From positions 311,362 through 375,361 of the forward strand of contig JAUIMI010000001.1 of assembly GCA_030433255.1 (NCBI GenBank): a stretch of 64,000 nucleotides of DNA, given 5' to 3'. Under the pieces are notes generated by a model, which saw nothing but the letters and a program-made list of their open reading frames with translations, had not been told where the DNA came from and ran no database searches. A program made the translations under genes and the position numbers. The stretch is from a bacterium. Its GTDB lineage: Bacteria; Patescibacteriota; Minisyncoccia; Phycocordibacterales; UBA1006. Shown piece by piece: positions 2,464 to 19,881 of the stretch (positions are counted from its first letter, which is position 1; every line of letters begins with the position of its first letter).

Positions 2464-2491
2464 ACGTCGTAAAATATATGTTGTGCGACGT
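2464..2491. other. dif-like Xer recombination site (left island boundary)
   Basis: ACGTCGTAAAA-TATATG-TTGTGCGACGT: 11-6-11 imperfect palindrome at the point where gene orientation converges. Confidence 0.7.
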
Positions 2492-2675
2492 TAATACAAG
2501 ATGTTTTTATGCCCTTTTAAGGGCATTTGACGTACATGCTTATTGAAACGGTGGTAACCTAAACATAAAGCATTATACTTTATAAAGATATTTCCGCTTT
2601 TGAGATATATTCATAGTTAAAAGTACATTTTGAATTATATCGCAATCCAACAAAAAAACAACCCTAAGGTCACTT

Positions 2676-3113
2676 TTACGAAGCCTGAAGTAGAACATCC
2701 CTCAATTTTAAGGCTTCCAATAATGAAGAGTCCAAGGTTAATGTTGGTTTGTTTTGGTTCAAATTGGATACTTCAGACTGTTGCCCTCCTTTTCTAGACA
2801 TATACTTTCCTGCCAATTCCTGATGACGGTTCGCACATAAATGTGTATAAGTAAATGAAGATTCAGGTTTTACATGTCTCAGAATCACCGAGACGTCTCT
2901 CATATTACCTCCCTGTTCTAAAATGCTATTCGCCTTGCCATGCCTAAAGCTGTGCGGTGTATAATTCTTGTCGATATTGGCATCTTCACACAGTAATTTC
3001 ATCCAACGTTGTACACTTCGCTGCGTGAATGGTTTCTTCGTTTTTGGATTAATCAAAAGTTCATCATGGTCAGTATCGAACCCTAGCCGTATCCCTAAAT
3101 AAATATTGAGCAA
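2676..3113 (-). pseudogene. Truncated XerC/D-like tyrosine recombinase (C-terminal catalytic part only)
   Basis: HSFRH, ILRH and YTH catalytic motifs; N-terminal domain and first catalytic Arg region missing. Confidence 0.8.
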
Positions 3114-3347
3114 GAGAAGAGTAAATACAGCGATAGCTTCGAATTTGAAATAATTAAAGCCTATAACGAATTATAGGCTAAACAATCAGTAGTGTTGGGA
3201 TATAGAATTCAACACCTTGTTTTTTGAATTAAGGTACTCGTACCCGTTTGGAGTTAGCTGATTAAGCTTTATTGTCTAACGTATTAAATATACTTGGTAA
3301 GCTTCTTCATTAGATCGTTTCATAACAGAACATTTAAAAAAGGAAAG

Positions 3348-3545
3348 TTATTTTACAAAAAGAAAATGAATAAAATAATTTGTCAAAAATTTCACTTCTT
3401 GTTTGGTCGGTCTTATAATACCAACATTGAATCCTATTTGGTTCAAGCGTGCTTGTAGAATTTTTACCTCAGTTGCCACATCTTTGGTATAGAAATGGTA
3501 ACGACCATCTCTGGCACCTGCTTTGACGTTTTGAGGCACTAACAT
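3348..3545 (-). pseudogene. Remnant of a peptidoglycan-binding domain, paralogous to the C-terminus of 3680-6742
   Basis: KAGARDGRYH...TEVKILQARLNQIGF aligns by eye with KVGDRNGSFS...TEVKILQAHMNRLGF. Confidence 0.6.
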
Positions 3546-3679
3546 TGATCAGCGTAAGTATTACGTATTCGGACACTACCTTGAATTCTGCGAATACTAG
3601 TTTAAGTAATATAGGCTCTGTTTCAAAATGTTAACTTTCAATTTATATTAAAAAACACCATTTGGTGTTTTTTAAGTAA

Positions 3680-6600
3680 CTAATTCAATGATGTAACTCC
3701 ATCTAATGCCACTCCAGAAAGAGCATTTAAATGCCCTGCGGTTTCAGGTCCAATAATTCCATCAAGGATTAAGTTATTAGCTTGTTGGTATGAACGAATA
3801 CCTGCGTAGGTAAGCCCTCCGTAAATACCATCAAATGGTCCAATGGAATGGCCAAGTGAAGCAATACATTCTTGTGCTTGACGTATGTCATTTCCTGTCA
3901 TTCCTCGTTTGATTAATCGTCTGTAATTGATGAAACATTTGGCATCTTCTACAACAGGAGTTGATTCTACTTCTATTACTTCTTTCCCACAACTATTGTT
4001 AATCAATGATCTTGTAATTGGTCCAACATATCCGTCCTGAGTTGTACCTAGATATGCTTGCATACGTTTAATAGCTCCGTCAGTAATTGGTCCCAAGATC
4101 CCATCTACTTTCCCTGATGCAAACCCTAATCTATTCATATGTGCTTGAAGAATTTTAACTTCCGTTATGGTTTCATTTTCCCATGATGAGAAGCTTCCGT
4201 TGCGGTCTCCTACTTTCATGTTTTGATTTAGTATTTGAGATGATGGACATTGTTCCCCTTTTCCAAGCTCTTCAGAAACAGGAGTTCCAAAAATTTCTGC
4301 TAACTTTTCTTTTGATACACGCCTTGAACTTCCTTTTGAAGTTGAAGTCGTAGCATCATCATCCGTTAGCGTTACGATATGTGCTTGGTCAGCAACCGCA
4401 TCATACTCATCAGCACTTGCAGCAGCATTGATGCTAGCGGTGATACTTGCGGTGTCGGTTTGCACAAGGTCATCGTCAACACCTGTGACGGTAACCGTTT
4501 GAGGTGTATCCCAGTTTGCTGGTGTAAAGGTCAGTGAGCTTGGTGATACCGTTGCTTCGTTGGTGTCACTTGAACTCAGGTCGATGACAACATCTGAGGT
4601 TGGTTCAGCATCAAGCACAATGGTGTAGCTTGCTGTTCCTGCGTTTTCTGAAGCTGTTGATGTGTTTGATGATTGAGTGAAATCAGCCATATCATCATCA
4701 GTGATGATAATTGAAGCGGTTGCATCTGCTACCCCATCATAGGTATCATCAGAGGCAGCATCATTTACCGAAATCGTAAGTGTAGCTGAGTCATCACGGT
4801 CAAGATCATCGTTAACTGCTGTTACGGTGATGGTTTGGTTGACGTTCCAGTTACCTGTAGTAAAAGTCAGTGAACTTGGCGAGACGGTGGCTTCCCCAGT
4901 GTCACTTGAACTCAGGTCGATGACAACATCAGTAAGTGGCTGTGAACCCAACCGAACATTGAAACTCCCAGTTCCTGCATTTTCAAGAATGGTTAATCCA
5001 GTTGTGGTAATTCCACTTGGGTCGATGATAATAGAAGCGGCATCATCATCCGTTAGCGTTACGATATGTGCTTGGTCAGCAACCGCATCATACTCATCAG
5101 CACTTGCAGCAGCATTGATGCTAGCGGTGATACTTGCGGTGTCGGTTTGCACAAGGTCATCGTCAACACCTGTGACGGTAACCGTTTGAGGTGTATCCCA
5201 GTTTGCTGGTGTAAAGGTCAGTGAGCTTGGTGATACCGTTGCTTCGTTGGTGTCACTTGAACTCAGGTCGATGACAACATCTGAGGTTGGTTCAGCATCA
5301 AGCACAATGGTGTAGCTTGCTGTTCCTGCGTTTTCTGAAGCTGTTGATGTGTTTGATGATTGAGTGAAAGAAGTAACCACATTTACAATACGTGTTACTT
5401 CGATAGCATCATTTCCAGCCGCATCAGCTACATTATATGTGATAGTGTAACTACCAAGAGTGGATGTATCTACTGGATTTACAGTTACAATATTTACTGT
5501 GATATCTCCATCAAGATTATCTGTTGCAGCCGCTCCAGCATCTGAATATGGAGTATTTACAGGGACTGTTACAGGGTCACTCCCTGTAAGTGTTATAACA
5601 GGGGGTGTTGTATCTTGTAACCATAGTCTATTTTGAAAATCACCATTATCCCCATTGACTACGTAAACATCAATTTCCCCATCATTGTTTACGTCCCCAG
5701 TTGTAACCCCAAATGATTCCCCAGTATCTCCTGTAATGTTGTTTTGTGTAAAGTTTCCAGATCCATCATTTTCCCAAATAATATTCTGAAAACCAAAATA
5801 CATTGCAATAAGGATATCCAAATCACCATCACCATCAAAATCAACAATTTCTGAATCTTGAGCAGTACCTCCATAGTCATTAGCGATATTTTGAGAGGCA
5901 AATGTCCCATCATTATTATTTATCCAAAACCGATTTAGATTAACAGGTTGGTCATCATAGTATGAGGTTAGGTATAAATCAATATCATTATCACCATCTA
6001 TGTCACCGACAACTACTGAACGACCTGGGCAACCATTATTTTGATCCGTACATATATCACCAGTTATGTTACCACTTACAAAAGTTCCATCCCCATTTCC
6101 GAGCCATAATTTGTTCTGGTTATTATACGCTGCTCGTGAAGCGTAAATGTCTAGGTTTCCATCGTTATTAAAATCAGCCATTGCTACATCATCAGCAATA
6201 CCATCTCCTGAAATACTTCCATCAATGAAATTCCCAGTCCCATCATTTATCCAAAGAACATTGGTTCCGCCACTAAATGCTCCTACATAAATATCTAAAT
6301 CGCCATCATTATCAACATCGCCAATAACAACCGAACTAGACCGAGAAGTTGTTGAGTCAGCTGGAATATCGGCATTTGTAAATGTACCATCTCCATTTCC
6401 AAGCCATAGTTTATTTTTACTAAAACTATTGGTGACATAGATATCCAAATTCCCATCACCGTTAAGGTCTGCCATAGCTGCATCGGTAGTGTTTCCTTGG
6501 TCATCACCTAGAATATCAGAATTGGTAAAAGTTCCATCCCTATTTCCGATCCATAATTTATTTTGCTCTAATCGAGCACCTACATATATGTCTAAGTTTC

Positions 6601-6742
6601 CATCGTTGTTAACGTCACCCATTATGGCTGAACGTGAATTTCCTAAATCATTAGGAATATCTTGTGAAACGAATTCGGCATAAGCGCCTTGAGCACTAAA
6701 AGCAAGCGCAAGTAATAAAATAATCTTTGTATAATACTTCAT
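3680..6742 (-). CDS. Surface protein: FG-GAP/VCBS repeats, DUF5011 Ig-like domain, three Calx-beta-like repeats, two peptidoglycan-binding domains
   Basis: Signal peptide; about 7 GDxxxDGxLDIYV repeats; DTTPPVITLTG...YNVADAAGN; repeated TFTPANWDTPQTVTV; DGILGPIT and DGIYGGLT motifs. Confidence 0.85.
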   Translation of the reverse strand: MKYYTKIILLLALAFSAQGAYAEFVSQDIPNDLGNSRSAIMGDVNNDGNLDIYVGARLEQNKLWIGNRDGTFTNSDILGDDQGNTTDAAMADLNGDGNLDIYVTNSFSKNKLWLGNGDGTFTNADIPADSTTSRSSSVVIGDVDNDGDLDIYVGAFSGGTNVLWINDGTGNFIDGSISGDGIADDVAMADFNNDGNLDIYASRAAYNNQNKLWLGNGDGTFVSGNITGDICTDQNNGCPGRSVVVGDIDGDNDIDLYLTSYYDDQPVNLNRFWINNNDGTFASQNIANDYGGTAQDSEIVDFDGDGDLDILIAMYFGFQNIIWENDGSGNFTQNNITGDTGESFGVTTGDVNNDGEIDVYVVNGDNGDFQNRLWLQDTTPPVITLTGSDPVTVPVNTPYSDAGAAATDNLDGDITVNIVTVNPVDTSTLGSYTITYNVADAAGNDAIEVTRIVNVVTSFTQSSNTSTASENAGTASYTIVLDAEPTSDVVIDLSSSDTNEATVSPSSLTFTPANWDTPQTVTVTGVDDDLVQTDTASITASINAAASADEYDAVADQAHIVTLTDDDAASIIIDPSGITTTGLTILENAGTGSFNVRLGSQPLTDVVIDLSSSDTGEATVSPSSLTFTTGNWNVNQTITVTAVNDDLDRDDSATLTISVNDAASDDTYDGVADATASIIITDDDMADFTQSSNTSTASENAGTASYTIVLDAEPTSDVVIDLSSSDTNEATVSPSSLTFTPANWDTPQTVTVTGVDDDLVQTDTASITASINAAASADEYDAVADQAHIVTLTDDDATTSTSKGSSRRVSKEKLAEIFGTPVSEELGKGEQCPSSQILNQNMKVGDRNGSFSSWENETITEVKILQAHMNRLGFASGKVDGILGPITDGAIKRMQAYLGTTQDGYVGPITRSLINNSCGKEVIEVESTPVVEDAKCFINYRRLIKRGMTGNDIRQAQECIASLGHSIGPFDGIYGGLTYAGIRSYQQANNLILDGIIGPETAGHLNALSGVALDGVTSLN
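4353..4682. repeat. 330-bp intragenic direct repeat, copy 1
   Basis: Appears identical by eye to 5040-5369 (offset 687 nt, 229 codons). Confidence 0.9.
5040..5369. repeat. 330-bp intragenic direct repeat, copy 2
   Basis: Appears identical by eye to 4353-4682. Confidence 0.9.
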
Positions 6743-6857
6743 ATCAATTTAAATATTAACCTAAGTCATTATTATTTACAATATCCTTGAACGAAAATTT
6801 GACTTGCAAAAATTGCTTATTGAAGTATAGTTGTATTAAATTTTAAACAAGTAAATT

Positions 6858-7352
6858 ATGAAACAATTATTTCTTCTAGTATTGGTATTTTTCTCTATTA
6901 CAGTGCAAGCTCAAGTTGGGCTAGGTACCAACACCCCAGACCCTAATTCTATATTGGATTTAACAAGTAACAATAAGGGATTGCTTATCCCTCGAATGCT
7001 AACTAGTGATCGTTTAGCTATTACATCACCACCAAACGGGTTAATCGTATTTGATGTTGATACCAATGGCATATGCTATTTTTCCTCTACTTTGGATTGG
7101 GTTTGCATTGATGCAGAGTCTACTAATGGATGGGTGCAATCTGTTGATGGCACAACACCAGCAAGTGATGCAACTCAATCCATTGAGCGTTCTGGTGACC
7201 TAGAAATTTCAACCACAAGTTTTCAGATTAGTATCTCTGAGTCAGGTGGGATTACACTCAAAAACACCTCAAGTAATTCAAGTATAGAAATACAAAGCGA
7301 CGGTAAGATAAAGATGACCGGAGCAAGTGGAAGTTTTGTATACATTAATTAG
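6858..7352 (+). CDS. Secreted protein of Bacteroidota type (QVGxGTxxP / KGLLIPRM family)
   Basis: Signal peptide ending AQ, then QVGLGTNTP...LDLTSNNKGLLIPRM...GLIVFD. Confidence 0.75.
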   Translation: MKQLFLLVLVFFSITVQAQVGLGTNTPDPNSILDLTSNNKGLLIPRMLTSDRLAITSPPNGLIVFDVDTNGICYFSSTLDWVCIDAESTNGWVQSVDGTTPASDATQSIERSGDLEISTTSFQISISESGGITLKNTSSNSSIEIQSDGKIKMTGASGSFVYIN

Positions 7353-7492
7353 TTGAAAATTGAATTTAGAAAAGCCCTTACACTCGTATAGGCTTTTTTT
7401 TAAATTACTTAAAGGACATTTAATACAAGGATTACAATATCTAAAGGACATTTAAAAACAGGCTATTTTTAAGTAGCCTGTTTGTTATTTAG

Positions 7493-8863
7493 TTAACGTA
7501 TAATTAATTTTTTAGATATTATCTTGTTGCTTGTAAGTATACTCACATGATACATTCCAGATGATAGATTAGGTAATTGTAAGCTTGTATTATCCGCCAA
7601 TAAACTACTATCATAATAAGCCATGGTTTTACCCAATGGATTATAGATAGTCACCTCTTGTATTGTAATAGCTTCGGGTAAGATAAAATGTATCTCTGTT
7701 GTTGCAGGATTTGGATATAAACGAATACTGTCAGTGGAGTCCTCAATATCTGAAACTCCCAAAGTAGCTTCATTTATGACATACATCTCAGTGATTAATT
7801 CATTTTCATATTGACCAACACCAATGTTGCCAGAAGTTAAGAGAACATTTGAAACTATCCCTTGATAAGGCATCTTTACAATAACGGATGAACCATATGC
7901 TCTATCAGCCGGAATAAAATTAGGATCTAGCGTCAAATTTGAGCCAGTATCGATGTAAATTCCTGCACTGGGATTCGGTTGTGATTGAAAACCAGCTACA
8001 TAATAGTCAAAACTTCCATCACTATTAAAATCATGTTCAAGAATATTAGCCTGTATATGATTAGGAATTACACTCGAACTTAACTCCGTAACACCATCTG
8101 AATCCACAAAATAAATATCAGATGTGTTGTTGTTAGTTTTAAGAATATACCTTCCAAATTCATTAAACACCAAAATGGTATCTGAACCCAATAAGCCTCT
8201 TGTACCTCTCAAGACATTATACGTGCCATTGTTGTTGCTAACCATAACATAACAATTATTATTCACATCATTGTTTGGTGTTGAGTTAAGAGAACTGGTA
8301 TCATCTACTATTTTTGTAAAGAATCCATTGGAATTTTCATAAATAATAGAACGTAAACGAAAACTTGCATCACGACCACTTGTTCGTAAATCAAGATCGC
8401 CATCATTATCAACATCGAAAAAATCAGCTATAACATCGTAAAGTCCAATGAGGTTTTGGGATACATTGTACCCTCCATTCCCGTCATCCATACGAATTTC
8501 TGCAAAAGGATTTGAATTGGGCAAATTAAGATTTGGCGTACCGATAATAAGAATATCTGGACCATACAGCCCATCAAGATCAGCCTGAAGTATTTTTCCA
8601 TACCCCACATCTGGCAATGTTCCCGTCTGAGCAAACATGTCATTTGTGTCATCAAAGTCGTAAATGCGAGTCCCAAGAATAGAATTATCCTCTATTCCAT
8701 ATCCGATTAATCGATTATGTAAACCATCTCCGTTAGTGTCGATAGGTAGAAATTCTCCTTTGACAGGAACGAGATTGTGCTGAATAGTTCCATAATTTAG
8801 TTGAGCACACACATTGAAAATAGGTGCAATTGCCATCATCAAAAACAAAATAATTTTTTTCAT
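7493..8863 (-). CDS. FG-GAP/VCBS-repeat protein with T9SS type A C-terminal sorting domain
   Basis: Signal peptide; DVDNDGDLDL and DFNSDG repeats; C-terminal LYPNP...IYNPLGK...LSSGMY...KKLIIR. Confidence 0.85.
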   Translation of the reverse strand: MKKIILFLMMAIAPIFNVCAQLNYGTIQHNLVPVKGEFLPIDTNGDGLHNRLIGYGIEDNSILGTRIYDFDDTNDMFAQTGTLPDVGYGKILQADLDGLYGPDILIIGTPNLNLPNSNPFAEIRMDDGNGGYNVSQNLIGLYDVIADFFDVDNDGDLDLRTSGRDASFRLRSIIYENSNGFFTKIVDDTSSLNSTPNNDVNNNCYVMVSNNNGTYNVLRGTRGLLGSDTILVFNEFGRYILKTNNNTSDIYFVDSDGVTELSSSVIPNHIQANILEHDFNSDGSFDYYVAGFQSQPNPSAGIYIDTGSNLTLDPNFIPADRAYGSSVIVKMPYQGIVSNVLLTSGNIGVGQYENELITEMYVINEATLGVSDIEDSTDSIRLYPNPATTEIHFILPEAITIQEVTIYNPLGKTMAYYDSSLLADNTSLQLPNLSSGMYHVSILTSNKIISKKLIIR

Positions 8864-9037
8864 CTTTTTAAATTTTAAGGTTTATTTGATTTGATATTAC
8901 CATGAACTCTTTCTTTTTACTATAAACTGAAAAAGCCTAACACTATATGATTATATATTTACAGGATAACTGTATATTCCCTTGCTTTGTTCAAACACTT
9001 GTTTTAGTTTAGCTTTCATCCATAAAACAAAGAATAC

Positions 9038-10978
9038 ATGAAAAAGCGAGTTGGCGTGTGGATACGAGTTTCCACAAAATTACAGCAGAATTCAGATAGC
9101 CCTGAACATCATTTGCAAAAAGCAAAAATGTACGCAGAGCTAAAAGATTGGGATATTGTAGAAGAGTACCACTTAGAAGCTGTTAGCGGCAAAAGCGTGA
9201 TGGAACACCATGAAGCCCAGCGTATGATGCGAGATATTCAAAGTGGTCATATTGAAGGTTTGATCTTCTCGAAGATTGCCCGCTTTGCTCGTAACGTAAA
9301 AGAACTTTTGGAATTCTCAAAACACTTTCAAAAGTATAAGGGAGATATGATTTCCTTGAGTGAATCTATAGATACCAGTACACCTTCTGGTCGCTTTTTC
9401 TTCACCATGATTTCTGCTATGGGTCAGTGGGAACGTGAAAATATTGTTGAACGTATTAAATCATCTGTAGAAGTCAGAGCCAAAATGGGAAAAATAATGG
9501 GTGGTATTCCATTTGGGTATAAACGAGTAGGTAAAGATGATATGGCACTTGATGAACACGAAGCTCCAATTCGTAAAATGATGTTTGACTTGTTTTTGGA
9601 GCATGAACGGCATGCAACCGTAGCCAACATTCTTAACGAAAAAGGATATCGCACCAAACGAAAAAGTAAATTCACCGGTACTACGGTTAAACGACTATTA
9701 CAAGACCCAACTGCAAAAGGTATTAGACGTTCTCATTGCACTAAGATAGATGAAAATGGAAAAACCGTAATGAGGGATAAGTCGGAATGGTACATCCACG
9801 AAGCACCACGAATCGTATCAGACGAAGTATGGGACACCGTAAATGATATTATCCGTAAACAGGAAAAAGAAAAGGTACAACCATTAAATAAAAAGGTGCA
9901 TTTGTTTACAAGCTATTTATTTTGTGAATGCGGTGGCGGTATGTATGTGCCATCGTCAAACCCAAAATACACTTGTAAGAAGTGTAAACGCAAAATCCAT
10001 GTCGAAGATATTGAAGCGATCTTTAAAGAACAGCTCACCGAGTTCATCATTTCAGAAGAAGAAGTAAAACGTTACTTTAATGGCACACACACCATCATCA
10101 GAGAAAAGCAACAAGAGATTGAAAATGTGAAATCAGAAATACTAAAACTTGAAGATAAGATTGAAAAGCTATTTGAACTTCACGAAAAAGGGCAAATTGA
10201 GACTGATAGATTTAAAGATTTCTACGATAAACCAAACAACCAAGTGCAACAATTAAAACTCAGAATCCCACGAATTGAAGGCGAAATCTATGCCTTGAAA
10301 GACCAATTTAAATCAAGTGGATATATTATTGAAGAAGCTCGTTCGTTATATGAAAACTGGCATAAACTCACCAAAAGGCAAAAACGTAACATCATAGAAA
10401 TCATTACCGAAAAGATAGTGGTATCAGAGCAGGAAGTGAACATCACACTTAACTATATTCTTCCAAAGACACCATCTTTGAAAACGACTGCAAATGGTAC
10501 TCATGGACTATACTCAATGAGTACCATTTGCAGTTTTAAACTGAAACCAAAGTTACGCAAAATACCTAAAGCAAAACCCTTTACCCACTCACTTGGAGAG
10601 TACATCCGACACGAAAGGCTAAAAAAGCACATTTCACAAGAAGCATTAGCAAAACAGTTTGGTGTTAATGGAGTTGCTTTATCTATGTGGGAACTAAAAC
10701 GTAAGCCAGTACATCCAAAACGTTTTCAATCGGTGATTGATTTTCTTGATTACGTTCCTAAAAAGTCATCGAAGTTTGATAAGCTAGGAACACGCACTCA
10801 ATTATGGCGATTACAAAATGAGGTGAGCCTCCAAGAGTTTTCAGAATTGGTACATGTTCCCATAGAAGAAATTACACGAATAGAAACAGCTAGATATTGT
10901 AAAATTGACAGTAAGGTATCTGAAATCATCAACGCATTCATCAAACACTCTATTTCTTCCCACGAAGTGCTTTCATAA
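9038..10978 (+). CDS. Large serine recombinase with C-terminal XRE-type HTH extension
   Basis: IRVST catalytic Ser, RFARN, recombinase domain, zinc ribbon (CECG...CKKC), coiled coil, then LGEYIRHERLKKHISQEALAKQFGV...WE. Confidence 0.9.
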   Translation: MKKRVGVWIRVSTKLQQNSDSPEHHLQKAKMYAELKDWDIVEEYHLEAVSGKSVMEHHEAQRMMRDIQSGHIEGLIFSKIARFARNVKELLEFSKHFQKYKGDMISLSESIDTSTPSGRFFFTMISAMGQWERENIVERIKSSVEVRAKMGKIMGGIPFGYKRVGKDDMALDEHEAPIRKMMFDLFLEHERHATVANILNEKGYRTKRKSKFTGTTVKRLLQDPTAKGIRRSHCTKIDENGKTVMRDKSEWYIHEAPRIVSDEVWDTVNDIIRKQEKEKVQPLNKKVHLFTSYLFCECGGGMYVPSSNPKYTCKKCKRKIHVEDIEAIFKEQLTEFIISEEEVKRYFNGTHTIIREKQQEIENVKSEILKLEDKIEKLFELHEKGQIETDRFKDFYDKPNNQVQQLKLRIPRIEGEIYALKDQFKSSGYIIEEARSLYENWHKLTKRQKRNIIEIITEKIVVSEQEVNITLNYILPKTPSLKTTANGTHGLYSMSTICSFKLKPKLRKIPKAKPFTHSLGEYIRHERLKKHISQEALAKQFGVNGVALSMWELKRKPVHPKRFQSVIDFLDYVPKKSSKFDKLGTRTQLWRLQNEVSLQEFSELVHVPIEEITRIETARYCKIDSKVSEIINAFIKHSISSHEVLS

Positions 10979-13900
10979 TAATATTAGTTATCGAAGCCTG
11001 CTTATTGGTGTCATTGTCTGTTTTGTAATCCACGTTTACACGGTAGCCACGTACACGCTTTACTTTGGTTTTTGGTTGAATTAAGGCATCAAGATACAGC
11101 AGTAATTCTTCAGATTTGAAGAAGTGGATTTTTAAGTGTTGTTTTTTAGAAATATTCTTTAAGGCTTGTTCCTTGATATTCTTAAGATGCTTTTCGTCCT
11201 CTGAAATCATATATACCAAAGAGTAGTTATCATCCAAGCACTTTTGAATATTTTGTACTTCATAATCTACTCTATTAGTTACTGAAATTTCAATGGCAAT
11301 ACGAATATCATCTTTTAACAGCGATACATCAACTTTGCCACCATTTAATGTTGAATCTTCAAGTGTTGCCTTAAACCCTCGCTGGAGAGCCATAGAACGA
11401 ATGTAATTTTGAATTGAACGATGCTGACGGACAATCTCCTGTTCTTCGGCTTGTTGTAAGTATTTTTCTTTACGAGCTTCTAAATCATCAGTCTTTTCTA
11501 AATTTTCAGTTTTTGGAGATGGTTTTGTTTCAGTAATGGGCTTTTCAACTTCACTTTTCTTATCTTCAACAATTACGGGTTCAACAGATTTTTCAATTTT
11601 GGGTTCTGTTGTTTTAGTTTTGAGTTTAGTCTTTTGGGGTGTTTGCTTAGGAAGCAAGGAAGCTAACAACTCATCAAGTTCTGCTTTAGATTTGCTGTAG
11701 CTTTTTCTTGTATGAGCAACAATACTATCTCTATTTACTTCGGCATTAGTTTCAGCTATAGACAATGGAAAGGTTGAAATATTAAAATCATCACTTGAAG
11801 AACCTACGCGCATAATGGCTTGTCCGATACCGAGACTCTGTAAATCATCTTGCTCAAAATATGAAAAACCAGACTCCAATCGTTTCGCATCGCTATCGCC
11901 TAGACGAAAACAAATCCGTGTTTTTGGATTTGATAAAACAGAGTTCAACAATTTTGCATCTTCAATTTGAGCCAATTCTTGATGAGCAATGGTAATACCT
12001 AAACCATATTTTCTAGCACCACTTAATATACGTTCAATACTTGGTGTGATGAAATTTTGGAACTCATCTAGGTATAACATAAAAGGTTTACGGCTATCCT
12101 TACCTTTAGATTGCCTTGCCAATGCCGATTGATTAAATTTTGCCAAGAACAATGAGCCTAATAAATAGGAATTCTGTTCTCCAATAAGGCCTTGCGATAA
12201 TTTCAGTAAAACAATTTTGTTGGTATTAAGGCAATTTGCTACATCAACACCTTTGTTTTGAGCTAACATATAGCGCACCAATTTTGGACGTAAAAATGTA
12301 TCTATACGAGTAAGTAGTGGTGCAATACCTTTTCGTACCAAAGGATATTCATTATTCCAATAGTAATGTAACGAAGGGTCGTTGACCGTTTTTAAGTATT
12401 GAACTCTATAAGGTTCTTCAAGTAGAAAACGCTTTAATTCAATAAGCGTTCCACCTTGAGTGCTCTCTAACATGGTATTTACAGCGTTTTGCAATACCGC
12501 AGTCATATTATCTCCCCAAGCAGTGGCATGACGTTTAAATGCCGAAACTAAATCTGATGAGAGTACAATTTTTTCAGCATCGGTATGCGCTTCTAATAGA
12601 TTGAATCCAATAGGGAAGTCAGCATCGGAAGGGTCTATTAAAACTACATCATTAATCCTGTTTTCTGGAATACGCTCTAAAATATCATCAATGATGTCGC
12701 CATGTGGATCGAACATAGCACAACCCATTCCATTTTCAATATCGGCAAGCATCATATTTGCCAGTAGAGTACTTTTACCAACGCCTGTGGCTCCTATTAC
12801 GTGTGTATGGGACAAACGTGTTTCATAGCTTAATTGAACAGGAATATCTTCTTGATTATGGGTATTGACTCCAATTAGGATGCCTTGATTGTCCTTTTGG
12901 TGTATACGTTTGGTTTTACCAACTTGCCATTGTAGTTTTTTAGAAACCACCGTTTTATTGGGATAGTGCAAAAAGGTATTCAGTTCCTTGGAATTCAATA
13001 CAAAGCCCAATCGGTTACTGAGGCGATGATGTAGATTGTATTTATGGAAATCATAATCATACCCTTCATTGGATAAAGGGATGAGTTTGTTATGCTGAGA
13101 GGTTGAAACTGCCGAAATACTTCGTGCTAACTCTTGTGCCAGATACTGACTCCTGTAATTGTCCTTGCCTTGAGTAGCTATACGCATCACCACTGAAAAT
13201 AGTGGATGTGCTATTTTTTCTTTGGCACACTGTGGCATTTCAGGAGCATCCGAAAAAAAAGAACCGCCAGCACCATCATTTACCGAATACATTGTATCCT
13301 TTGCTAAAGGAGAACTAATACCTTTAAACAGAATTTGAAAAACAGCAACATCATCATCCTGCAAAGCTTCCATAGTTGCGATGACTGAAGTTAATGGGTC
13401 TATGTTAAAAGAATCAGACGTAACTATGCTTCGCATATATTCACTATTAAGCCCAAAGTCTGCAATAGCGATATCATTTTTGTTTGAAAATCCAAAATCA
13501 TCAACTTCAATAGTTTTAATTATAACCATTGGAAAGTATGCCGATAATTGCGATTTCAATCTGCCTCTATCCTGTTTACTACATACCATTTGAATTTGGA
13601 TAGTATCTGAATTACCAATAATTTCAAAGGACAGTAAATGTTCTGTAAAGGATAGTAGATTGAGAAGTTCGATATTCCTGCTTGGATTGATTTCAGTCCC
13701 ATACGGAAAGGAAATTGAGAGACCAACAAGTTGAGGCTTTTCTGAAACTTCAAGAAAACGAGGTTTAACCTCTATTAAATCTTCTTCTGGTTCTTCTTCT
13801 TTAGGAGGAGCAAGTAATTTGGTTACTTGTTTGAATAATGAAGGTGCTCTACCATCATCTTGTATTGAAGGTCGGTTTTGGCTTACATGCTGAAAGGGAA

Positions 13901-14009
13901 CATAGGGAACCTCAATATCAATAGGAGTATCGAAATTGTAATACCCACGAAATCGATACTCCCAATTATAGAAATTAAGGGTTGCTTGTTCACTTCTTGT
14001 TAAACCCAT
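10950..14009 (-). CDS. VirD4/TraD-HerA-like ATPase with C-terminal PD-(D/E)xK-like domain
   Basis: HTHVIGATGVGKS Walker A, DPHGD, LYLDEFQNF Walker B, ARKYGL...AHQ; C-terminal KVDV...IAIEIS. Confidence 0.8.
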   Translation of the reverse strand: MGLTRSEQATLNFYNWEYRFRGYYNFDTPIDIEVPYVPFQHVSQNRPSIQDDGRAPSLFKQVTKLLAPPKEEEPEEDLIEVKPRFLEVSEKPQLVGLSISFPYGTEINPSRNIELLNLLSFTEHLLSFEIIGNSDTIQIQMVCSKQDRGRLKSQLSAYFPMVIIKTIEVDDFGFSNKNDIAIADFGLNSEYMRSIVTSDSFNIDPLTSVIATMEALQDDDVAVFQILFKGISSPLAKDTMYSVNDGAGGSFFSDAPEMPQCAKEKIAHPLFSVVMRIATQGKDNYRSQYLAQELARSISAVSTSQHNKLIPLSNEGYDYDFHKYNLHHRLSNRLGFVLNSKELNTFLHYPNKTVVSKKLQWQVGKTKRIHQKDNQGILIGVNTHNQEDIPVQLSYETRLSHTHVIGATGVGKSTLLANMMLADIENGMGCAMFDPHGDIIDDILERIPENRINDVVLIDPSDADFPIGFNLLEAHTDAEKIVLSSDLVSAFKRHATAWGDNMTAVLQNAVNTMLESTQGGTLIELKRFLLEEPYRVQYLKTVNDPSLHYYWNNEYPLVRKGIAPLLTRIDTFLRPKLVRYMLAQNKGVDVANCLNTNKIVLLKLSQGLIGEQNSYLLGSLFLAKFNQSALARQSKGKDSRKPFMLYLDEFQNFITPSIERILSGARKYGLGITIAHQELAQIEDAKLLNSVLSNPKTRICFRLGDSDAKRLESGFSYFEQDDLQSLGIGQAIMRVGSSSDDFNISTFPLSIAETNAEVNRDSIVAHTRKSYSKSKAELDELLASLLPKQTPQKTKLKTKTTEPKIEKSVEPVIVEDKKSEVEKPITETKPSPKTENLEKTDDLEARKEKYLQQAEEQEIVRQHRSIQNYIRSMALQRGFKATLEDSTLNGGKVDVSLLKDDIRIAIEISVTNRVDYEVQNIQKCLDDNYSLVYMISEDEKHLKNIKEQALKNISKKQHLKIHFFKSEELLLYLDALIQPKTKVKRVRGYRVNVDYKTDNDTNKQASITNIIMKALRGKK

Positions 14010-14014
14010 GTCAT

Positions 14015-14599
14015 CTATCTGATAAATACATCATTTAACATAGGCTTACGCTCTGCCTCACTGATAGAGCGGATTCCTTTATCGTTGGTAATGTCATCAA
14101 TGACTTTTAACACCGAAGATTGAGCGTAGCTCATAAACATACTGGCAGTATCTATCCTGTAATAGGTTACTGGATACAATTTTCTTGCAAGCCAACCACC
14201 TATAAATGGAATTTTAGCAACCAATATCTTGCCAATGGAATCTTTATACAATAACCACCAAGACACGAAAAAGCCATGACCAAACTTGGCTCCACAAATA
14301 TCATATTGGTAATCTTTCCATATAGCTCGTAAATAGATGCGAGAATGAGACATCGCTCCTCCTTCTTTAATGAATTTTTCTTTGATATTGATTTTTGTAA
14401 TGCCGTGAGATTCCAGTTCGGTTTTTAATAAGGCATAAAACTCTTTAGGTGAGTATTCAAAGTTATCAATAAGGGTACTCCACCGTGAGTGATAGTTTTT
14501 TCTGGTTTTACTGAAAATAAATCTTAAAACTAGAAAAGCAACAATTCCAGCTAGGACATACATCCCATATTTTGTTAGATAAAAAGTGAATTCATTCAT
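14015..14599 (-). CDS. Hypothetical membrane protein upstream of the ATPase
   Basis: N-terminal TM plus a second hydrophobic segment; 5 nt from the ATPase gene. Confidence 0.7.
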   Translation of the reverse strand: MNEFTFYLTKYGMYVLAGIVAFLVLRFIFSKTRKNYHSRWSTLIDNFEYSPKEFYALLKTELESHGITKINIKEKFIKEGGAMSHSRIYLRAIWKDYQYDICGAKFGHGFFVSWWLLYKDSIGKILVAKIPFIGGWLARKLYPVTYYRIDTASMFMSYAQSSVLKVIDDITNDKGIRSISEAERKPMLNDVFIR

Positions 14600-14625
14600 A
14601 GGGTTTCAAGTTTTAGTTGTTAGAC

Positions 14626-15534
14626 TTATATTAATTGTGTCTTTATTGATAAGGTTTTTTCCTCTTCATTATAGAAGCAGTCTACAGTAACTTTAGGTAA
14701 TTGGGACAAAGAGCTAACATGAGTTCCTCCACAAGGGATAGTAACAAATCTATCATTTATTTTTACTTTAAAATTTCGTTTAGCCCCTAATTGAATATTA
14801 TCTCCGAACATACTTACTTTAGAAGATTTATTGATATCTATAAGTTTGTTTAAACTACTCGACAACTCAATAGAAAACTTTTTAAAATCTAAGCTTTTGA
14901 ATTTAACTAAGTCAAACCCTTTCTTTGATAAACTTTTACCAATACGATATACATCAGTAGCATAATAAGTGTAGATTTTTGATTTCTGTATTGCTAAGGC
15001 ATCAAAATTTGGATTATTAAGATCATCTTTAAAATCCACCTCTTTTTTCCAAAATGAAGCTAGTTCTTCATTAAGAATTATTGACATCAAATGAACGGTA
15101 GTGTGTGTTTTAGAGAGATTTTCTCTAAATTTTTCGTCTACATATAACTCGCAATCTAAATCAATTAATGAGTTTTCATTTAATGAGTTTAAATCGTCAA
15201 TAATAAAATGCCCTATCATGGCAATATATATACCTTCTTGAAGCCCTTTATAAAAAGCACTTTTACTTTTGGGAAATACATTCTTTCTAGTATTTATGTC
15301 TATAATTATAATACGAGAGTCTTCAACCTTATATGTTTTTCCTTGAATGACTATTTTTCCTTTATCTCCTGGTTGATCTCCACCTAGATAATCTTCAGGG
15401 TGAAATGGACTCATGTCTGTACAAACATATAGACCCTCAGGAAAAGAAAAGACACCTTTTATTTTAGCTTTAGAATAGGTTGAATTTTCATAATATAATG
15501 CTTGGCTAGTTGTTGTTCTATTTGAGATTTTCAT
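14626..15534 (-). CDS. AlaX-like metal-dependent hydrolase (AlaRS editing-domain family)
   Basis: SPFHP...GDQPGDKG, HTTVH (HxxxH) and PCGGTH (CxxxH) zinc motifs. Confidence 0.8.
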   Translation of the reverse strand: MKISNRTTTSQALYYENSTYSKAKIKGVFSFPEGLYVCTDMSPFHPEDYLGGDQPGDKGKIVIQGKTYKVEDSRIIIIDINTRKNVFPKSKSAFYKGLQEGIYIAMIGHFIIDDLNSLNENSLIDLDCELYVDEKFRENLSKTHTTVHLMSIILNEELASFWKKEVDFKDDLNNPNFDALAIQKSKIYTYYATDVYRIGKSLSKKGFDLVKFKSLDFKKFSIELSSSLNKLIDINKSSKVSMFGDNIQLGAKRNFKVKINDRFVTIPCGGTHVSSLSQLPKVTVDCFYNEEEKTLSIKTQLI

Positions 15535-16553
15535 AAGTTAATTATATAAGGATTAGTACTTTTTACAAACTGCATCTTCACTTTTGACCTAAGAGTCACT
15601 ATTCTTTGAAGCCAACGATCGTGTCCATCAAATTTTGCGGGGAACAATGATCTACCATGGACTGCTTTATCATTATCTATAATTAATAAATCGCCTGGTT
15701 TAAGAGCTATCTTTATAGCGCTTTCATGTATAAGTAATTTTAATTCTTTAAATGCTGTTTCTGCTTTTTTTGTTAAGAACTTGGTAGTATATAATGGATC
15801 ATACCTCAAGGTAAGTGTCTTTTTAAATTCTAATATTGACACCTTAACTTCTTTTTGAACACCATGGGCTTCGTCTGAAGAAATAATAAAATTGGGCATT
15901 AGTAATTGTTCAATTGTTTGTGGTTTTAACTTATAAAAGTCTATTTTAGAAATTAACGTATAAGCTTCTGGTGTTCCTCTTAAACATAATAATAGTATAT
16001 GATTGCACCTAAGGTTGTGAAATGCATCTTCTGTATGCCAATCTAAATAGACTCTCCCCGTTCCTAATTGTTTATTTTGGTCTTTTATTTTGGGAAAAAG
16101 ATTTTGTATTACAAGTCCTTTTCTTTGCGAAAAATAGCCATAAGGATATCCTATTAAATTAGCTATAGCAATAAGAATGATTTCACTGTAAGATGTCATT
16201 TTTAAATCTAAATTTCCAGTTGGCCCAAGATGTTGGTCTAGCAATAAATTTTCAATTAAAAAAGCACCTATAGTATTAGATTTATTTGCAAACTCAACAA
16301 TAGAATCTTCTAATTCATTAGGAAGCACATCTGAAACATCATCACTCGCCCTAGAAATATTGAAGTAATTTTTTTGATTAAACTTTTTTTCCGCTTTGAT
16401 GGAAACTTTATTTTTTATGAACTTATTTTCATCAGATGACAGTCTATAAAAAGATTCAAATTTTGTTAGCTGAATTTTTTCATGAATTTTTCTTAAGTCT
16501 TTCACTATATCTCTTTTTTTAGTAAAATTAGATTTATAACTATTTGTAACCAA
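15531..16553 (-). CDS. Clavaminate synthase-like (TauD/TfdA; AsnO/VioC-like) Fe(II)/2-oxoglutarate dioxygenase
   Basis: WHTEDAFH, LLLCLR, GDLLIIDN..AVHGR and DRWLQR motifs; start codon uncertain. Confidence 0.85.
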   Translation of the reverse strand: MVTNSYKSNFTKKRDIVKDLRKIHEKIQLTKFESFYRLSSDENKFIKNKVSIKAEKKFNQKNYFNISRASDDVSDVLPNELEDSIVEFANKSNTIGAFLIENLLLDQHLGPTGNLDLKMTSYSEIILIAIANLIGYPYGYFSQRKGLVIQNLFPKIKDQNKQLGTGRVYLDWHTEDAFHNLRCNHILLLCLRGTPEAYTLISKIDFYKLKPQTIEQLLMPNFIISSDEAHGVQKEVKVSILEFKKTLTLRYDPLYTTKFLTKKAETAFKELKLLIHESAIKIALKPGDLLIIDNDKAVHGRSLFPAKFDGHDRWLQRIVTLRSKVKMQFVKSTNPYIINL

Positions 16554-16630
16554 TACGGATTTTCCCTTAATTTTTAATGCTGATTATCTGAAAGACAATA
16601 ATTTCAAGTAGATTTACTTCATTATTCGAA

Positions 16631-17320
16631 ATGATGAACATCAGATTATTAATATTCGTAATCTTTCTTGCTCTTGGAATTGGATGCCATGCGGGCTCTT
16701 ATGCCTTCAATAATGAAAAACTTTTAGAACTATTATCGCAGGCTGAAAAACTGGAACAGAACAAGGAGTATTCAACCGCATTGAATGTATATAATGAGGC
16801 TCTGAAAATTGCATCCAAAGAAGAGCGTATTGAAGACGCCAGTTACATTTACAATAAAATAGGATTAGTCTATTACAGACAAAAGCAATACGAAACAGCA
16901 AAATCCAATTTTAAGACCAGCATCCTAAAATCCAATATTTCTAATAGTGCTGCAGATTCTTATTTCAATCTCTCGCTGATTTACAGAAAACAAAACTCAA
17001 AGGATAGCCTTCTATGGTCATTGAATAGGTCTTTGGAAATTTATGGTGGTTTGGAAGATAGCAACAGTAAATTTTCAACCTATTCCAAAGCTGGAATTCT
17101 CTATAAACAGCTGGGTATGTATGACAAAGCCATTGAATATTTGCTTTTGGCTTATGACGGATTAGATAATAAAGAAAATGAGTCCCAAAAAACTTCGGTT
17201 TGCTACACCATTGGTGAGACGCAACGCCTTTTGGGAAATTTAGACATTGCTAAAACTTATCTAAAAGAAAGCCTTCAGATTAGAAATAGACTTAATGATT
17301 CTCTTAAAACGTCTTCATAG
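16631..17320 (+). pseudogene. TPR-repeat protein, probably the truncated N-terminus of a TPR sensor kinase
   Basis: Signal peptide plus several TPR repeats; stops abruptly, overlapping the convergent truncated hlyD. Confidence 0.65.
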
Positions 17321-17622
17321 TTAGCAGTGTTTTCGGCTATGGCTAATGCTTGACCACTATGAACTATATCATTATCCTTTACGAGAAGATTGCTAATTTC
17401 ACCACTCATTCTTGCATATTCCTTTTGAGGTGGAATTGTAGTAGTTATTATTACCTGTGACTGAATAATATCAGGATACTTAATATACCATGTTGCTAAA
17501 AACAATAAAAATATAACTACAAAAATTACCGTTATCCCCCATTTTAAAAAAACATTTGGTTGCTTTTCTAAAATTTCTCTAATTTGCTCACTGTGATTAT
17601 CGATTTCGTCAATTTTCATCAT
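17275..17622 (-). pseudogene. Truncated HlyD-family secretion adaptor
   Basis: SEQIREIL...KWG-TM-YIKYPD...VKDND.V..GQ.LA..ENTANYEDV, then sequence breaks off. Confidence 0.8.
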
Positions 17623-17876
17623 TAACTTCCTAATTCTAATTGATCTTTAACTAACTTATAATAGACTCCTTTATTATTTACTAACTTTTGATGATCACCT
17701 TCCTCAATTATTTCTCCTTTTTCTAAACAGCTCCCTAAATAATCTTTAATCTTAGCCCATGTACCATCACACCCATGACAATCAGACCAGTCACCTCCTT
17801 GAACTTTTTCAAGTACATCACTAGTGTTTACGTTTTCTGCTTTTGCTTTAAAAGCTTCAAGACTTAATCTCTTCAT
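17622..17876 (-). pseudogene. Double-glycine leader peptide precursor fused in frame to the last ~34 aa of an ABC exporter
   Basis: MKRLSLEAFK...LEKVQGG leader; tail LEKGEIIEEGDHQKLVNNKGVYYKLVKDQLELGS is an ABC NBD C-terminus. Confidence 0.75.
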
Positions 17877-17900
17877 AATAAAAAGTTTTATATAGTTTAC

Positions 17901-17933
17901 TTGCCTACTCTTTTAGCTTTTCGGCTCCCGCTA
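17901..17933 (-). promoter_or_regulatory. Candidate structured leader upstream of the peptide precursor
   Basis: Minus strand reads TAGCGGGAGCCGAAAAGCTAAAAGAGTAGGCAA, a GC-rich stretch with a GCC/GGC stem in AT-rich DNA. Confidence 0.35.
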
Positions 17934-18044
17934 TTATTATTTTCTAAATAAACGAAAAATATTGGTCATTATTGACCAAATAATTAAAAATTTATATTGT
18001 TAACTGTTTTTTGAGTTTCTCATAGAGTTTTTTCAGGTAATAAC

Positions 18045-18350
18045 ATGTTATGTTTTATCTTGCAATTGCTATTAATCATGTTTCCTATGAACTCATTACC
18101 CTTTGAGATTCTCTTTGAAGTTCTCGGCAATCGTATTCGTGATCTTCGACAATCAAAAAAGCTTTCACAAATTGAAGTAGCAGCAAGATGTGGACTGGAC
18201 GTTTCTAACTATAATAAAATTGAATTTAACAAAAGGCCACCATCACTACGTACGCTATTTAAAATTGCCATTGCTCTAGATGAACCTATCTCTAATTTCT
18301 TTAATGATGAAGTGTTTCTCTCATTTATCGAAGAACATGTGAAAGCTTAA
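18045..18350 (+). CDS. XRE-family HTH transcriptional regulator
   Basis: LGNRIRDLRQSKKLSQIEVA...IE...PSLRTLFKIA; true start may be a later ATG. Confidence 0.85.
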   Translation: MLCFILQLLLIMFPMNSLPFEILFEVLGNRIRDLRQSKKLSQIEVAARCGLDVSNYNKIEFNKRPPSLRTLFKIAIALDEPISNFFNDEVFLSFIEEHVKA

Positions 18351-18572
18351 TAAAAATGTTGTTTTTAATAAATCAGTCTATCAAGTCTAAAGTTGTAATC
18401 TCATTAAATAGCTTTTAAATATGCTTGCTTTTTGGTTCTAGCAGTATTGTGTAGCAATGGCATTAAGTAAGTATTAGGCTAATGTCCACAGATATACTTT
18501 AAATTCTATTTTTTTAATTACGAAACCAAAAAAAAGCGTTAGCTTTTTAAAACAGCCAAACCAAAGAGATAG

Positions 18573-18884
18573 CTATAACCAGCTATCTCTTTGTAATTGC
18601 TTTCGTTCTTGTTCCTGTTTTATTTGTTCTATTCGGATATGGTCTGGAATGCGTTCATTTGCGTTGTACTTTGGTAAAGAAATTTCTTTTGTAGAACGCA
18701 TTTTTTGCGTTTCGAATTGTGAATGAGATATCCAGTCCCGTCGCTTAACCTTTCCAAACTCATCTCGCCATCCCAAAAGATTCCTCACAATCTTAAGATA
18801 CACACGCACCGCAGATCCACTCATACTTCCAATATGCTTATCAAAAAAAGCATTAGGCACTGGAGTCGTATTATTCAGTCGCAT
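18573..18884 (-). pseudogene. Phage/plasmid replication initiator (lambda-O-like N-terminus), probably internally deleted
   Basis: NTTPVPN...RVYLKIVRNLLGW...DWISHSQF, with the remainder of the winged helix absent. Confidence 0.55.
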
Positions 18885-19083
18885 GAGCTTCAAAATCAAT
18901 TACTGGTAAATTATCATTATGATTTGGAAAGATCATAAAATTAGTATCTGGTTGATGATACAACTGTAAAAACCAACCGCCGTTGTTGGTTACTTTTACA
19001 ACACCTACTTTATGATAAATATGTTTGTCGTTATCAACCTTATTAACAGTTTTACGAGTAACAACGTTATAAAATTTAGTCAT
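18871..19083 (-). CDS. Small hypothetical mobile-element protein
   Basis: MTKFYNVVTRK...KVGVVK...WFLQLY; overlaps the rep start; start moved to ATG 19083. Confidence 0.55.
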   Translation of the reverse strand: MTKFYNVVTRKTVNKVDNDKHIYHKVGVVKVTNNGGWFLQLYHQPDTNFMIFPNHNDNLPVIDFEAHATE

Positions 19084-19186
19084 ACTAAAATTCAATTTTA
19101 TGTACGTTTTAACCTTAGGGAAAACCCAATACAAATCAAAATCGAAAATATTTTGTTTCAATAGAAAGTCGCAAAACCCTTGACTT

Positions 19187-19214
19187 TTGTCGGACAAGTA
19201 GTGTTGTGCGACGT
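19187..19214. other. dif-like Xer recombination site (right island boundary)
   Basis: TTGTCGGACAA-GTAGTG-TTGTGCGACGT; right arm identical to that of the left site. Confidence 0.65.
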
Positions 19215-19435
19215 TATATTAAAATGACATATTTTATAAAAACCACCCTATTTACATACTTTTCCTAAAATAAAAACCACCTAGTTTCTAAGGTGATGGT
19301 TTTTATCCCTCACAAGAAATACAAACATTCATTTCTTGTTCTTTTTGTTTACCTGCTACCTCTTCACTGGTAAATGGATCAATATAGGTATCTTTCATAA
19401 TTTTAATTATATTAAACGTGTATACAATAATTATA

Positions 19436-19879
19436 CTATTTTTTCTCTATTACTAAAAATAGCTGGCTCTTTGTGTTGTATGCTTCGAGGGTTAAGGTAT
19501 ACTTGCCTGCCTCTTTGAATGCGTACTTCTCTTTATATAAGGTGTTGGGTGTATTTAAGTGTAACTGCTCGTGTACAGCTCTTATAATTTCTTTTAAACC
19601 TAGCGCATGATATAGAGAACCTTTTTCATTTAATTTCTCTCTTATGGTTATGGTTTTACCATTAATCAGGGATAGTGTTGTTTCTATTTTTTCCTGTTCC
19701 TTTTCTGCCTTATTAAGAGCAGCTGTTTTTGCTTGTTTGATTTTATTTAATGCTGTATTGGTAGCAACCTTTGCCAAACCTTTCGGGATAAGAGAGTTTT
19801 GAGCGTATCCATCTGAAACTTCAACAACCTCTCCTTTTTTACCAATACCTTTTATATGCTGTGTTAAAATAATTTTCAT
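19436..19879 (-). CDS. rplI: 50S ribosomal protein L9
   Basis: MKIIL...GKKGEVVEVSDGYAQN.LIPKG.A. Confidence 0.95.
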   Translation of the reverse strand: MKIILTQHIKGIGKKGEVVEVSDGYAQNSLIPKGLAKVATNTALNKIKQAKTAALNKAEKEQEKIETTLSLINGKTITIREKLNEKGSLYHALGLKEIIRAVHEQLHLNTPNTLYKEKYAFKEAGKYTLTLEAYNTKSQLFLVIEKK

Positions 19880-19881
19880 AC

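Follow-up and report, generated by a model that had tools for sequence, protein, structure and literature searches.

Elements that enter a chromosome at the site where its dimers are resolved are known as integrative mobile elements exploiting Xer (IMEX), and CTXphi, VGJphi, TLCphi, the gonococcal genetic island and EludIMEX-1 are examples. According to the available part of PMC5357621, these elements target a 28-bp dif-type site by means of an element-borne site of which one arm is conserved and the other divergent; for the CTX- and VGJ-type members the spacers are described there as homologous on just one side, and one intact and one degenerate site are left after insertion. Here we describe a locus that is alike on each of these points, in a genome of the candidate phyla radiation (CPR; Patescibacteria). 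The locus is an island at 2464-19214 of a 64,000-nt stretch of contig C3 in genome G000 (812 kb, 6 contigs, rated 99.43% complete); we call the whole stretch the window, and coordinates are positions in it. About 10 kb of the island (8976-19186), together with 2492-3140, is a serine-recombinase integrative element of Flavobacteria-type genomes, and its insertion into the CPR terminus site is real, recurrent and site-specific.

How does this element compare with described systems? It acts like an IMEX but departs from the definition under which such elements bring no recombinase of their own, as an intact tyrosine recombinase gene stands by the element's site in 12 of the 17 loci that have no CPR dif junction and the window keeps a fragment. 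Unlike an IMEX, it encodes both a tyrosine and a serine recombinase; it usually resides in another phylum, whose dif is of canonical type, and there uses the serine recombinase to integrate; and the target genome here has one full-length tyrosine recombinase and another arm sequence. Large-serine-recombinase integrative elements offer a second comparison, and both of their traits are present: resolvase plus recombinase domains, and attL and attR around a short core that rejoin to attP upon excision. Unlike in those elements, attP lies here inside the recombinase gene, excision fuses a helix-turn-helix (HTH) domain to the product, and there is a second, dif-like integration route. The nearest NCBIfam models of the serine recombinase are CcrB/CcrC of SCCmec and XisF, all far below cut-off. 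Additionally, gene transfer from Bacteroidota to Patescibacteria has been inferred from metagenome-assembled genomes (PMC12455944), and an abundance correlation involving Chitinophagales has been reported (PMC9530719). In the available parts of both sources Bacteroidota appear as frequent donors and possible partners, as they do here; those parts treat single genes or abundance correlations, whereas the present case is a defined element with base-precise junctions in both phyla. Literature searches that did not cover subscription journals gave no publication on Patescibacteria with a dif site and Xer, none on an element shared with Flavobacteriaceae, and no title that treats this element among those on T9SS (the type IX secretion system) in Patescibacteria/CPR, on CPR hosts and on Xer; its novelty may be affected by the transfer and island tables of PMC12455944.

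A first-pass annotation of the window had read 6858..19200 as a block captured from a flavobacterial partner within a CPR-type backbone, with dif-like ends. The backbone is indeed CPR, the dif-like ends are real, and the motifs lie where they had been placed (QVGLGT/KGLLIPRM at 6858-7352, a T9SS tail at 7493-8863, tetratricopeptide repeats (TPR) at 16631-17320, ENTANYEDV at 17275-17622 and QLELGS at 17622-17876). The block's limits have given way to those stated above, and its element core had been overlooked, namely the serine recombinase, attP, the TraD-like ATPase and the tyrosine recombinase fragment. As for flavobacterial capture, the cross-phylum element stands on nine open reading frames (ORFs) and the att sites, whereas counting the T9SS-tail and QVGLGT genes as part or proof of it is not supported.

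The island is bounded on the left by an intact 28-bp dif-like site and on the right by a hybrid copy. With up to 2 mismatches allowed, the genome has two copies of the 16-nt core of this site, at 2479 and 19202; the cumulative GC skew has a plateau at about 2.6-5.6 kb, where its sign turns from positive to negative. The sequence at 2464-2491 equals the empty site of two relatives (G015 and G016) and differs by 1-5 mismatches in 13 further CPR loci; near-identical sites (0-5 mismatches) are thus present in 15 related-CPR loci, one from another family. In seven same-genus genomes (G005, G008, G011, G012, G014, G015 and G016) the site lies element-free between engB and rplI/S41. From its position, symmetry and conservation we infer that 2464-2491 is dif; in other words, the insertion lies, as in an IMEX, at a putative dimer-resolution site, a single conserved 11-6-11 sequence at the GC-skew switch that is empty in seven relatives. 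The left junction carries the chromosomal spacer and the right junction the element's; the two have in common only TG, the last two bases, beside the shared arm, which places the crossover at the spacer edge next to that arm. The 184 bp that follow the intact site align with the recombinase-to-site spacer of seven element copies, and the homology stops within the site.

In what form is the element present? Our reference is G041, a Bacteroidia genome whose family we take to be Flavobacteriaceae, where a ~48-kb element occupies about 322.7-370.8 kb of one contig. Its integration site lies inside the serine recombinase gene, such that the N-part and the HTH C-part stand at opposite ends, and the order is HTH, TraD-like ATPase, membrane protein, a conserved 170-aa gene that we guess to be of replication type, the MTKFY gene, the 11-6-11 site, tyrosine recombinase, cargo and serine recombinase. 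Joining the element halves from attL and attR of G041 yields the attP of the window to the base, so the window holds the excised-circle form; the recombinase-HTH fusion arises only upon excision. The fused product is 92.5% identical to the G041 N-part and 82% to the separate C-part about 47 kb away, and 85% identical to the recombinase of a Tenacibaculum ovolyticum isolate; relatives at nine loci of the genome collection come from Bacteroidia (2), Tenacibaculum, Kordia (3), Psychroserpens (2) and a Paceibacterota contig (1). Overall, the window is a circular permutation of a G041-type element opened at the 11-6-11 site, with the recombinase end on the left and the MTKFY end on the right. Nine island ORFs have close flavobacterial matches (52-97% amino acid identity) among 33 flavobacterial loci compared, which were gathered by searching, such that the identities are not an unbiased best-hit survey.

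The element's tyrosine recombinase likewise falls among Bacteroidota-labelled relatives. The fragment in the window is 57-66% identical to intact element recombinases, and an intact one has 353 database relatives, the taxon-named ones among the 120 listed being all Bacteroidota (Kordia, Dokdonia, Algibacter, Lacinutrix). In a tree of 73 recombinases (from a quick search, with one mis-cut row dropped and 57 rows unlabelled) the element clade is well supported. In Atlas searches the nearest clusters were mainly from Bacteroidota, with none from CPR among the matches listed. A plasmid search with the element recombinase gave 115 records, all below 60% and below 28% among the matches listed, and viral contigs searched with an MTKFY alignment gave no relative. 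Of relaxase and mating-pair genes only the TraD/VirD4-like ATPase turned up among the window ORFs, no relaxase search having been run on intact copies; the available part of PMC12102498 counts 5,713 VirD4-like genes in 2,918 Patescibacteria genomes, with few relaxases. The position of attP within the serine recombinase gene, where excision adds an XRE-type HTH, could make for a state-dependent switch, and the recombinase at a further locus (L095) is similarly long.

How could such an element recognize a CPR chromosome? In element copies an 11-6-11 site lies between the tyrosine recombinase and the MTKFY gene, 68-109 bp upstream of the latter in 22/22 loci (5 genomic and 17/17 in a metagenome scan). 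As in an IMEX attP with one conserved arm, 13 of 14 distinct sites have an outer arm that matches one of nine variants of the CPR arm exactly, and none of the 14 has such an inner arm. With the three CPR dif junctions left out, outer arms equal the left or the reversed right CPR arm exactly in 10 of 11 distinct sites, and inner arms vary freely. Only 2 of 840 shuffles reached the lowest observed score of 18 and none went higher, the same arm set having picked the windows in real and shuffled sequence. The pattern was found within the element modules of G041, G393 and G852, with 0 control matches; one extra match in G393, on its contig C6 among housekeeping genes, we take to be chance. A Kordia genome holds two more such modules, one of which has the full CPR spacer TATATG, like G041. 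What we take to be the canonical dif pattern was clear only in T. ovolyticum, where it differs from the element site, and matches in G041 and G393 were at control level. At least 120 viral contigs have this type of site as well; 80 of them were fetched, and in 78 neither recombinase query had a match within about 3 kb, in keeping with reliance on a chromosomal Xer.

The insertion recurs within the genus. Our samples comprised the CPR family (55 genomes, of which 18 belong to this genus) and two samples of its order (401 genomes, 394 outside the family, and 201 genomes, 198 outside). The MTKFY gene is present in 3/55 family genomes, all three in this genus, and in 0/394 order genomes outside the family. 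In the second genome (G010) a hybrid junction stands beside engB in the opposite orientation; in the third (G006) it stands at a contig end, and at two further loci (L100/L101) CPR genes in synteny with G000 adjoin this same junction. A second G006 junction was not found at the end of its contig C4. The inner arms and spacers of the three CPR copies differ, which suggests separate insertion events.

Raw assembly data bear on whether the island is physically continuous with the CPR backbone. In run X1, variant-free unitigs cover 1001-2742, 2727-3601, 5420-9060, 12557-18598 and 19076-21000; both junctions, the cargo deletions and the boundaries at 6.8 and 8.9 kb are bridged by them at depth 7.5-8.35, against 8.2-8.25 on backbone-carrying pieces. 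In run X3, island pieces have depth 3.1-5.5 versus 4.2. Runs X5 and X6 had almost none of the sequence words, a result without evidential weight. The earlier proposal that this is not a simple chimera is borne out by these bridging unitigs and by att sites that reconstruct to the base.

We consider it rather probable that the island is a decayed, excised-circle flavobacterial element joined at the CPR terminus site, likely by the CPR's Xer and likely out of an attached host. In Flavobacteria, the element would excise via its serine recombinase, rejoining attP; the circle would then be opened at the dif-like site that it carries and inserted at the CPR dif, with the CPR's own Xer as the likely catalyst. 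One strand exchange by Xer, resolved afterwards, like that of CTX/VGJ-type IMEX, would leave behind an intact dif and a mismatched second copy that would hinder excision. Entry may have been by natural competence, as ComEC is encoded in the CPR genome, from a flavobacterial host cell, and CPR-type DNA would later have replaced the element's middle (3140-8970). The one full-length tyrosine recombinase of G000, on contig C4 at about 138.2-139.1 kb, scores barely above the cut-off of a XerA-type model. The catalyst, the uptake route, any two-way traffic and the host relationship are what we infer from these comparisons.

Several observations weigh against this interpretation. The element is uncommon in CPR, as the MTKFY count shows, and also in the donor family (2 clear of 401, 2/351 genomes), and only one junction is visible in each of G010 and G006. 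The dif function of the terminus site is deduced, and the element's tyrosine recombinase, which falls in a Bacteroidota-labelled clade and is 21-29% identical to CPR Xer, may be the catalyst. A codon-usage test is weak evidence because the backbone genes engB and rplI also come out donor-like; the classifier, whose held-out separation was modest, was dropped. Of the coverage check that the first-pass annotation had proposed at 2.4, 6.8, 8.9 and 19.2 kb, the crossing at even depth held, but the X1 unitig at 2727-3601 has a depth of only 4.9 and no unitig among the pieces listed spans the whole island, such that support comes from unitigs, not long reads. X1 and X2, possibly the reads behind the assembly, resemble a single data set deposited under two entries, X1-X4 being apparently two data sets. 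Related contigs at 90-95% identity occur in the same runs (depth about 300 in X1), so uptake could have been of free DNA from an abundant neighbour.

An extension of this interpretation, which we hold only tentatively, is that the element is a two-way shuttle, which docks on flavobacterial chromosomes through its serine recombinase and on those of their epibionts through a mimic of CPR dif, and that Flavobacteriaceae are hosts of the whole Paceibacteria family. Passage through CPR would keep the mimic arm exact and sometimes return a CPR spacer or genes (TATATG in two flavobacterial copies; a pilin gene at locus L104), and the CPR family would keep T9SS-tagged proteins aimed at the host's secretion machinery.

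Who catalysed the joining, if not the CPR's Xer? It may have been the element's own tyrosine recombinase, its site mainly resolving the circle in Flavobacteria and the CPR insertion being a dead-end cross-reaction. Of the 17 loci that have no CPR dif junction, 12 have the end of the recombinase gene about 0.3 kb away from the site, a layout that resembles recombinase-plus-site modules; in G041 (contig C39, about 329.1-330.1 kb) the enzyme retains its catalytic motifs, and all visible CPR copies are partial or decayed. We nevertheless regard this account as rather unlikely given the exact CPR outer arms beside free inner arms, the full TATATG spacer in two flavobacterial copies, and the viral contigs that mostly have the site without a nearby recombinase.

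Alternatively, the transfer may be real but uninformative on the host, a competent CPR having taken up free element circles from abundant neighbours. ComEC and the contigs at depth about 300 would accommodate this, and Patescibacteria are described as enriched in competence genes in the available part of PMC11665869; three independent insertions in one genus with none in 394 order genomes outside the family, and T9SS-tail proteins in 44/55 family genomes versus 18/198 outside, make it unlikely. Very improbable is an element native to CPR that spread to Flavobacteria, the window copy descending within CPR: its short VirD4-like gene has a resident CPR counterpart at 36-40% identity, and the sole taxon-named protein of 23 next-shell recombinase relatives looked up is from a Patescibacteria genome, but the cargo fragments have intact counterparts in flavobacterial clusters, a site in use in a Bacteroidia chromosome is present in the window in its excised form, and no full-length element recombinase above 28% was found in the 55 family genomes. 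The module itself may still have an ancient CPR origin. A chimeric assembly or contaminated bin, to which a metagenome assembly, related element contigs in the sample, and a similar element in G005 (on a contig without CPR genes, the dif of that genome being empty) might point, is extremely improbable in view of two junctions that both fall precisely within the 28-bp site and are reciprocal in their arms and spacers, variant-free unitigs crossing them at backbone depth, and analogous junctions in other assemblies.

Returning to the excised-circle interpretation, the element likely points to Flavobacteria as hosts, and the T9SS tails found across the CPR family strengthen this. PF18962 matches 44/55 family genomes (41 over cut-off) versus 21/201 in the order sample, or 18/198 outside the family. 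Proteins of 475-766 aa with such a tail lie next to, or at most three genes from, tpiA in G000 and in all eight same-genus loci examined, which had been chosen for having a tail match. By eye, Gln is the residue after the signal peptide in these proteins, resembling the Bacteroidetes Q-rule. In these respects they are like the T9SS type A cargo of the available part of PMC10653852, with signal peptide then Gln and a C-terminal PF18962/TIGR04183 domain over cut-off; unlike such cargo they are resident, fast-diverging genes in CPR genomes without the machinery in the same cell, as SprA, GldM and PorV are all in G041 and in 0/4 CPR genomes tested. A plant-type glutaminyl cyclase was not found in four CPR genomes, a search that did not include the animal type. 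We regard the family-wide tails as separate, sequence-level evidence that would fit a long link to T9SS-bearing cells, with export via T9SS putative.

If Flavobacteria are the hosts, what follows? According to the available part of PMC11665869, work on Patescibacteria other than Saccharibacteria is held back mainly by the difficulty of finding hosts. An element present in both phyla, with junctions defined to the base in each, would give a culturable candidate host group and bait strains, as Kordia, Dokdonia, Algibacter and relatives carry the recombinase; the T9SS-tail slot would be a second, independent host signature across the family. Additionally, the element suggests a concrete route for cross-phylum passage of DNA between partner cells and a defined recombinase/site pair for studying CPR chromosome dimer resolution.

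The features of the island are collected in the table.

Table. Features of the island, by position in the window (aa, amino acids; ABC, ATP-binding cassette; Ig, immunoglobulin)
Feature	Position	Strand	Basis or comparison
Intact chromosomal dif-like site, 11-6-11: ACGTCGTAAAA TATATG TTGTGCGACGT; left junction	2464..2491	+	CPR comparison, GC-skew switch
Element-derived spacer, site to tyrosine recombinase stop	2492..2675	-	Aligns with 7 element copies
Tyrosine recombinase, C-terminal third, first catalytic Arg deleted with N-terminal part	2676..3140	-	PF00589; six-frame reading
Remnant like CPR-type peptidoglycan-binding tail (by eye)	3385..3548	-	Six-frame translation
1020-aa FG-GAP/Ig/peptidoglycan-binding surface protein, CPR-type	3680..6742	-	Pfam
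164-aa secreted QVGLGT/KGLLIPRM protein	6858..7352	+	No Pfam or NCBIfam family
456-aa secreted protein, T9SS type A tail	7493..8863	-	PF18962 42.1 bits (cut-off 27); TIGR04183 48.5 bits (cut-off 23)
Large serine recombinase, HTH domain fused in frame	9038..10978	+	Pfam PF00239 and PF07508 over cut-off
Rejoined attP: 24-bp inverted arms around TATA core (10509-10512)	10487..10534	+	Join of G041 attL/attR element halves
1019-aa TraD/VirD4-like ATPase, element core	10950..14009	-	Pfam; below NCBIfam cut-offs; 73% to G041
194-aa membrane protein, element core	14015..14599	-	82% to G393
AlaX-like protein and Fe/alpha-ketoglutarate dioxygenase, cargo	14626..16553	-	NCBIfam matches below cut-off
Truncated TPR sensor, N-terminal third	16631..17320	+	52% over 201 aa to 676-aa G329 protein
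Truncated HlyD-type adaptor, N-terminus with ENTANYEDV	17275..17622	-	57% to N-terminus of 428-aa G115 protein
Peptide precursor start fused in frame to ABC-exporter tail	17622..17876	-	About 3.7 kb lost versus G115
XRE-family HTH regulator	18045..18350	+	PF01381
Conserved element gene (no family), lacking 201 bp in frame at about 18710	18573..18884	-	97% to G041 over first 58 aa
Conserved 70-aa MTKFY element gene, marks site-proximal end	18871..19083	-	96% to G041
Hybrid right junction: element inner arm TTGTCGGACAA, element spacer GTAGTG, chromosomal arm TTGTGCGACGT	19187..19214	+	

At least five deletions or replacements broke cargo and core genes, and the element, as read from its sequence, is decayed. 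The TPR sensor and HlyD genes are truncated against each other; the exporter cluster is intact in G115, in the order precursor, 398-aa protein, 749-aa ABC protein and 428-aa HlyD; the tyrosine recombinase lacks its N-terminal two thirds; and the 170-aa gene lacks 201 bp in frame, its undeleted form appearing as a loose end at 18710 in runs X1-X4. The best relative of the dioxygenase is 47% identical.

The element's middle is replaced by 3140-8970, which carries the wall-binding surface protein, the QVGLGT gene and the T9SS-tail gene. The tail of the surface protein is 54-57% identical to same-genus CPR proteins, with no match in the 33 flavobacterial loci; its gene contains an exact 330-bp duplication (4353-4682, 5040-5369) that doubles an Ig-like unit and breaks unitigs. 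The QVGLGT protein has relatives in 5/54 other CPR-family genomes, and neither it nor the T9SS-tail protein matched any of the 33 loci. The T9SS-tail protein has six database relatives, and its best match among the proteins compared is a backbone paralogue beside tpiA on C4 (31%). Its product likely belongs to a CPR-resident propeller-plus-tail family, judging from the sequence comparison, and the gene is therefore not evidence for capture. The per-ORF search for relatives that had been proposed with the capture claim upholds that claim for nine ORFs and not for this one. A promoter scan of 6700-9100 gave 14 sites versus 13.1 expected and was uninformative.

The tpiA-pgk slot (G000:C4:164620-166095, equal to L041:6621-8096; also L080-L087) holds very divergent secreted T9SS-tail proteins, mostly FG-GAP propellers; in these nine same-genus genomes without T9SS they are candidates for a host-directed adhesin or decoy. 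Several ordinary CPR secreted proteins (window 44-1384, L041) also have an apparent Gln after the signal peptide. In one database protein (P0123) the first half of a 72% T9SS-tail relative is joined to a DnaK C-terminus, likely a chimeric gene call or rearrangement.

Other copies of the element add detail. Contig C16 of G005 (L024) is a second attP-form copy, with a 92% recombinase and RHS-type cargo, and may be a binning error or a free circle; as a candidate fourth CPR insertion it was excluded from the CPR set, since the contig is without CPR genes and the G005 dif is empty. On a 424-kb marine scaffold (L104:93-632), a pilin gene 45% identical to a G000 pilin, which we presume to be CPR-type, lies just outside an intact element module with an unrecombined site; the scaffold could be a CPR chromosome with the element elsewhere or a flavobacterial copy with CPR cargo. 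Near-identical pilin-start arrays (L101:6632-7815, L079:1868-6298) flank the dif region in G006-type genomes, suggesting a hotspot of pilin variation. Finally, the viral contigs with a dif-type site (L154-L233) are possibly a large set of CPR IMEX phages.

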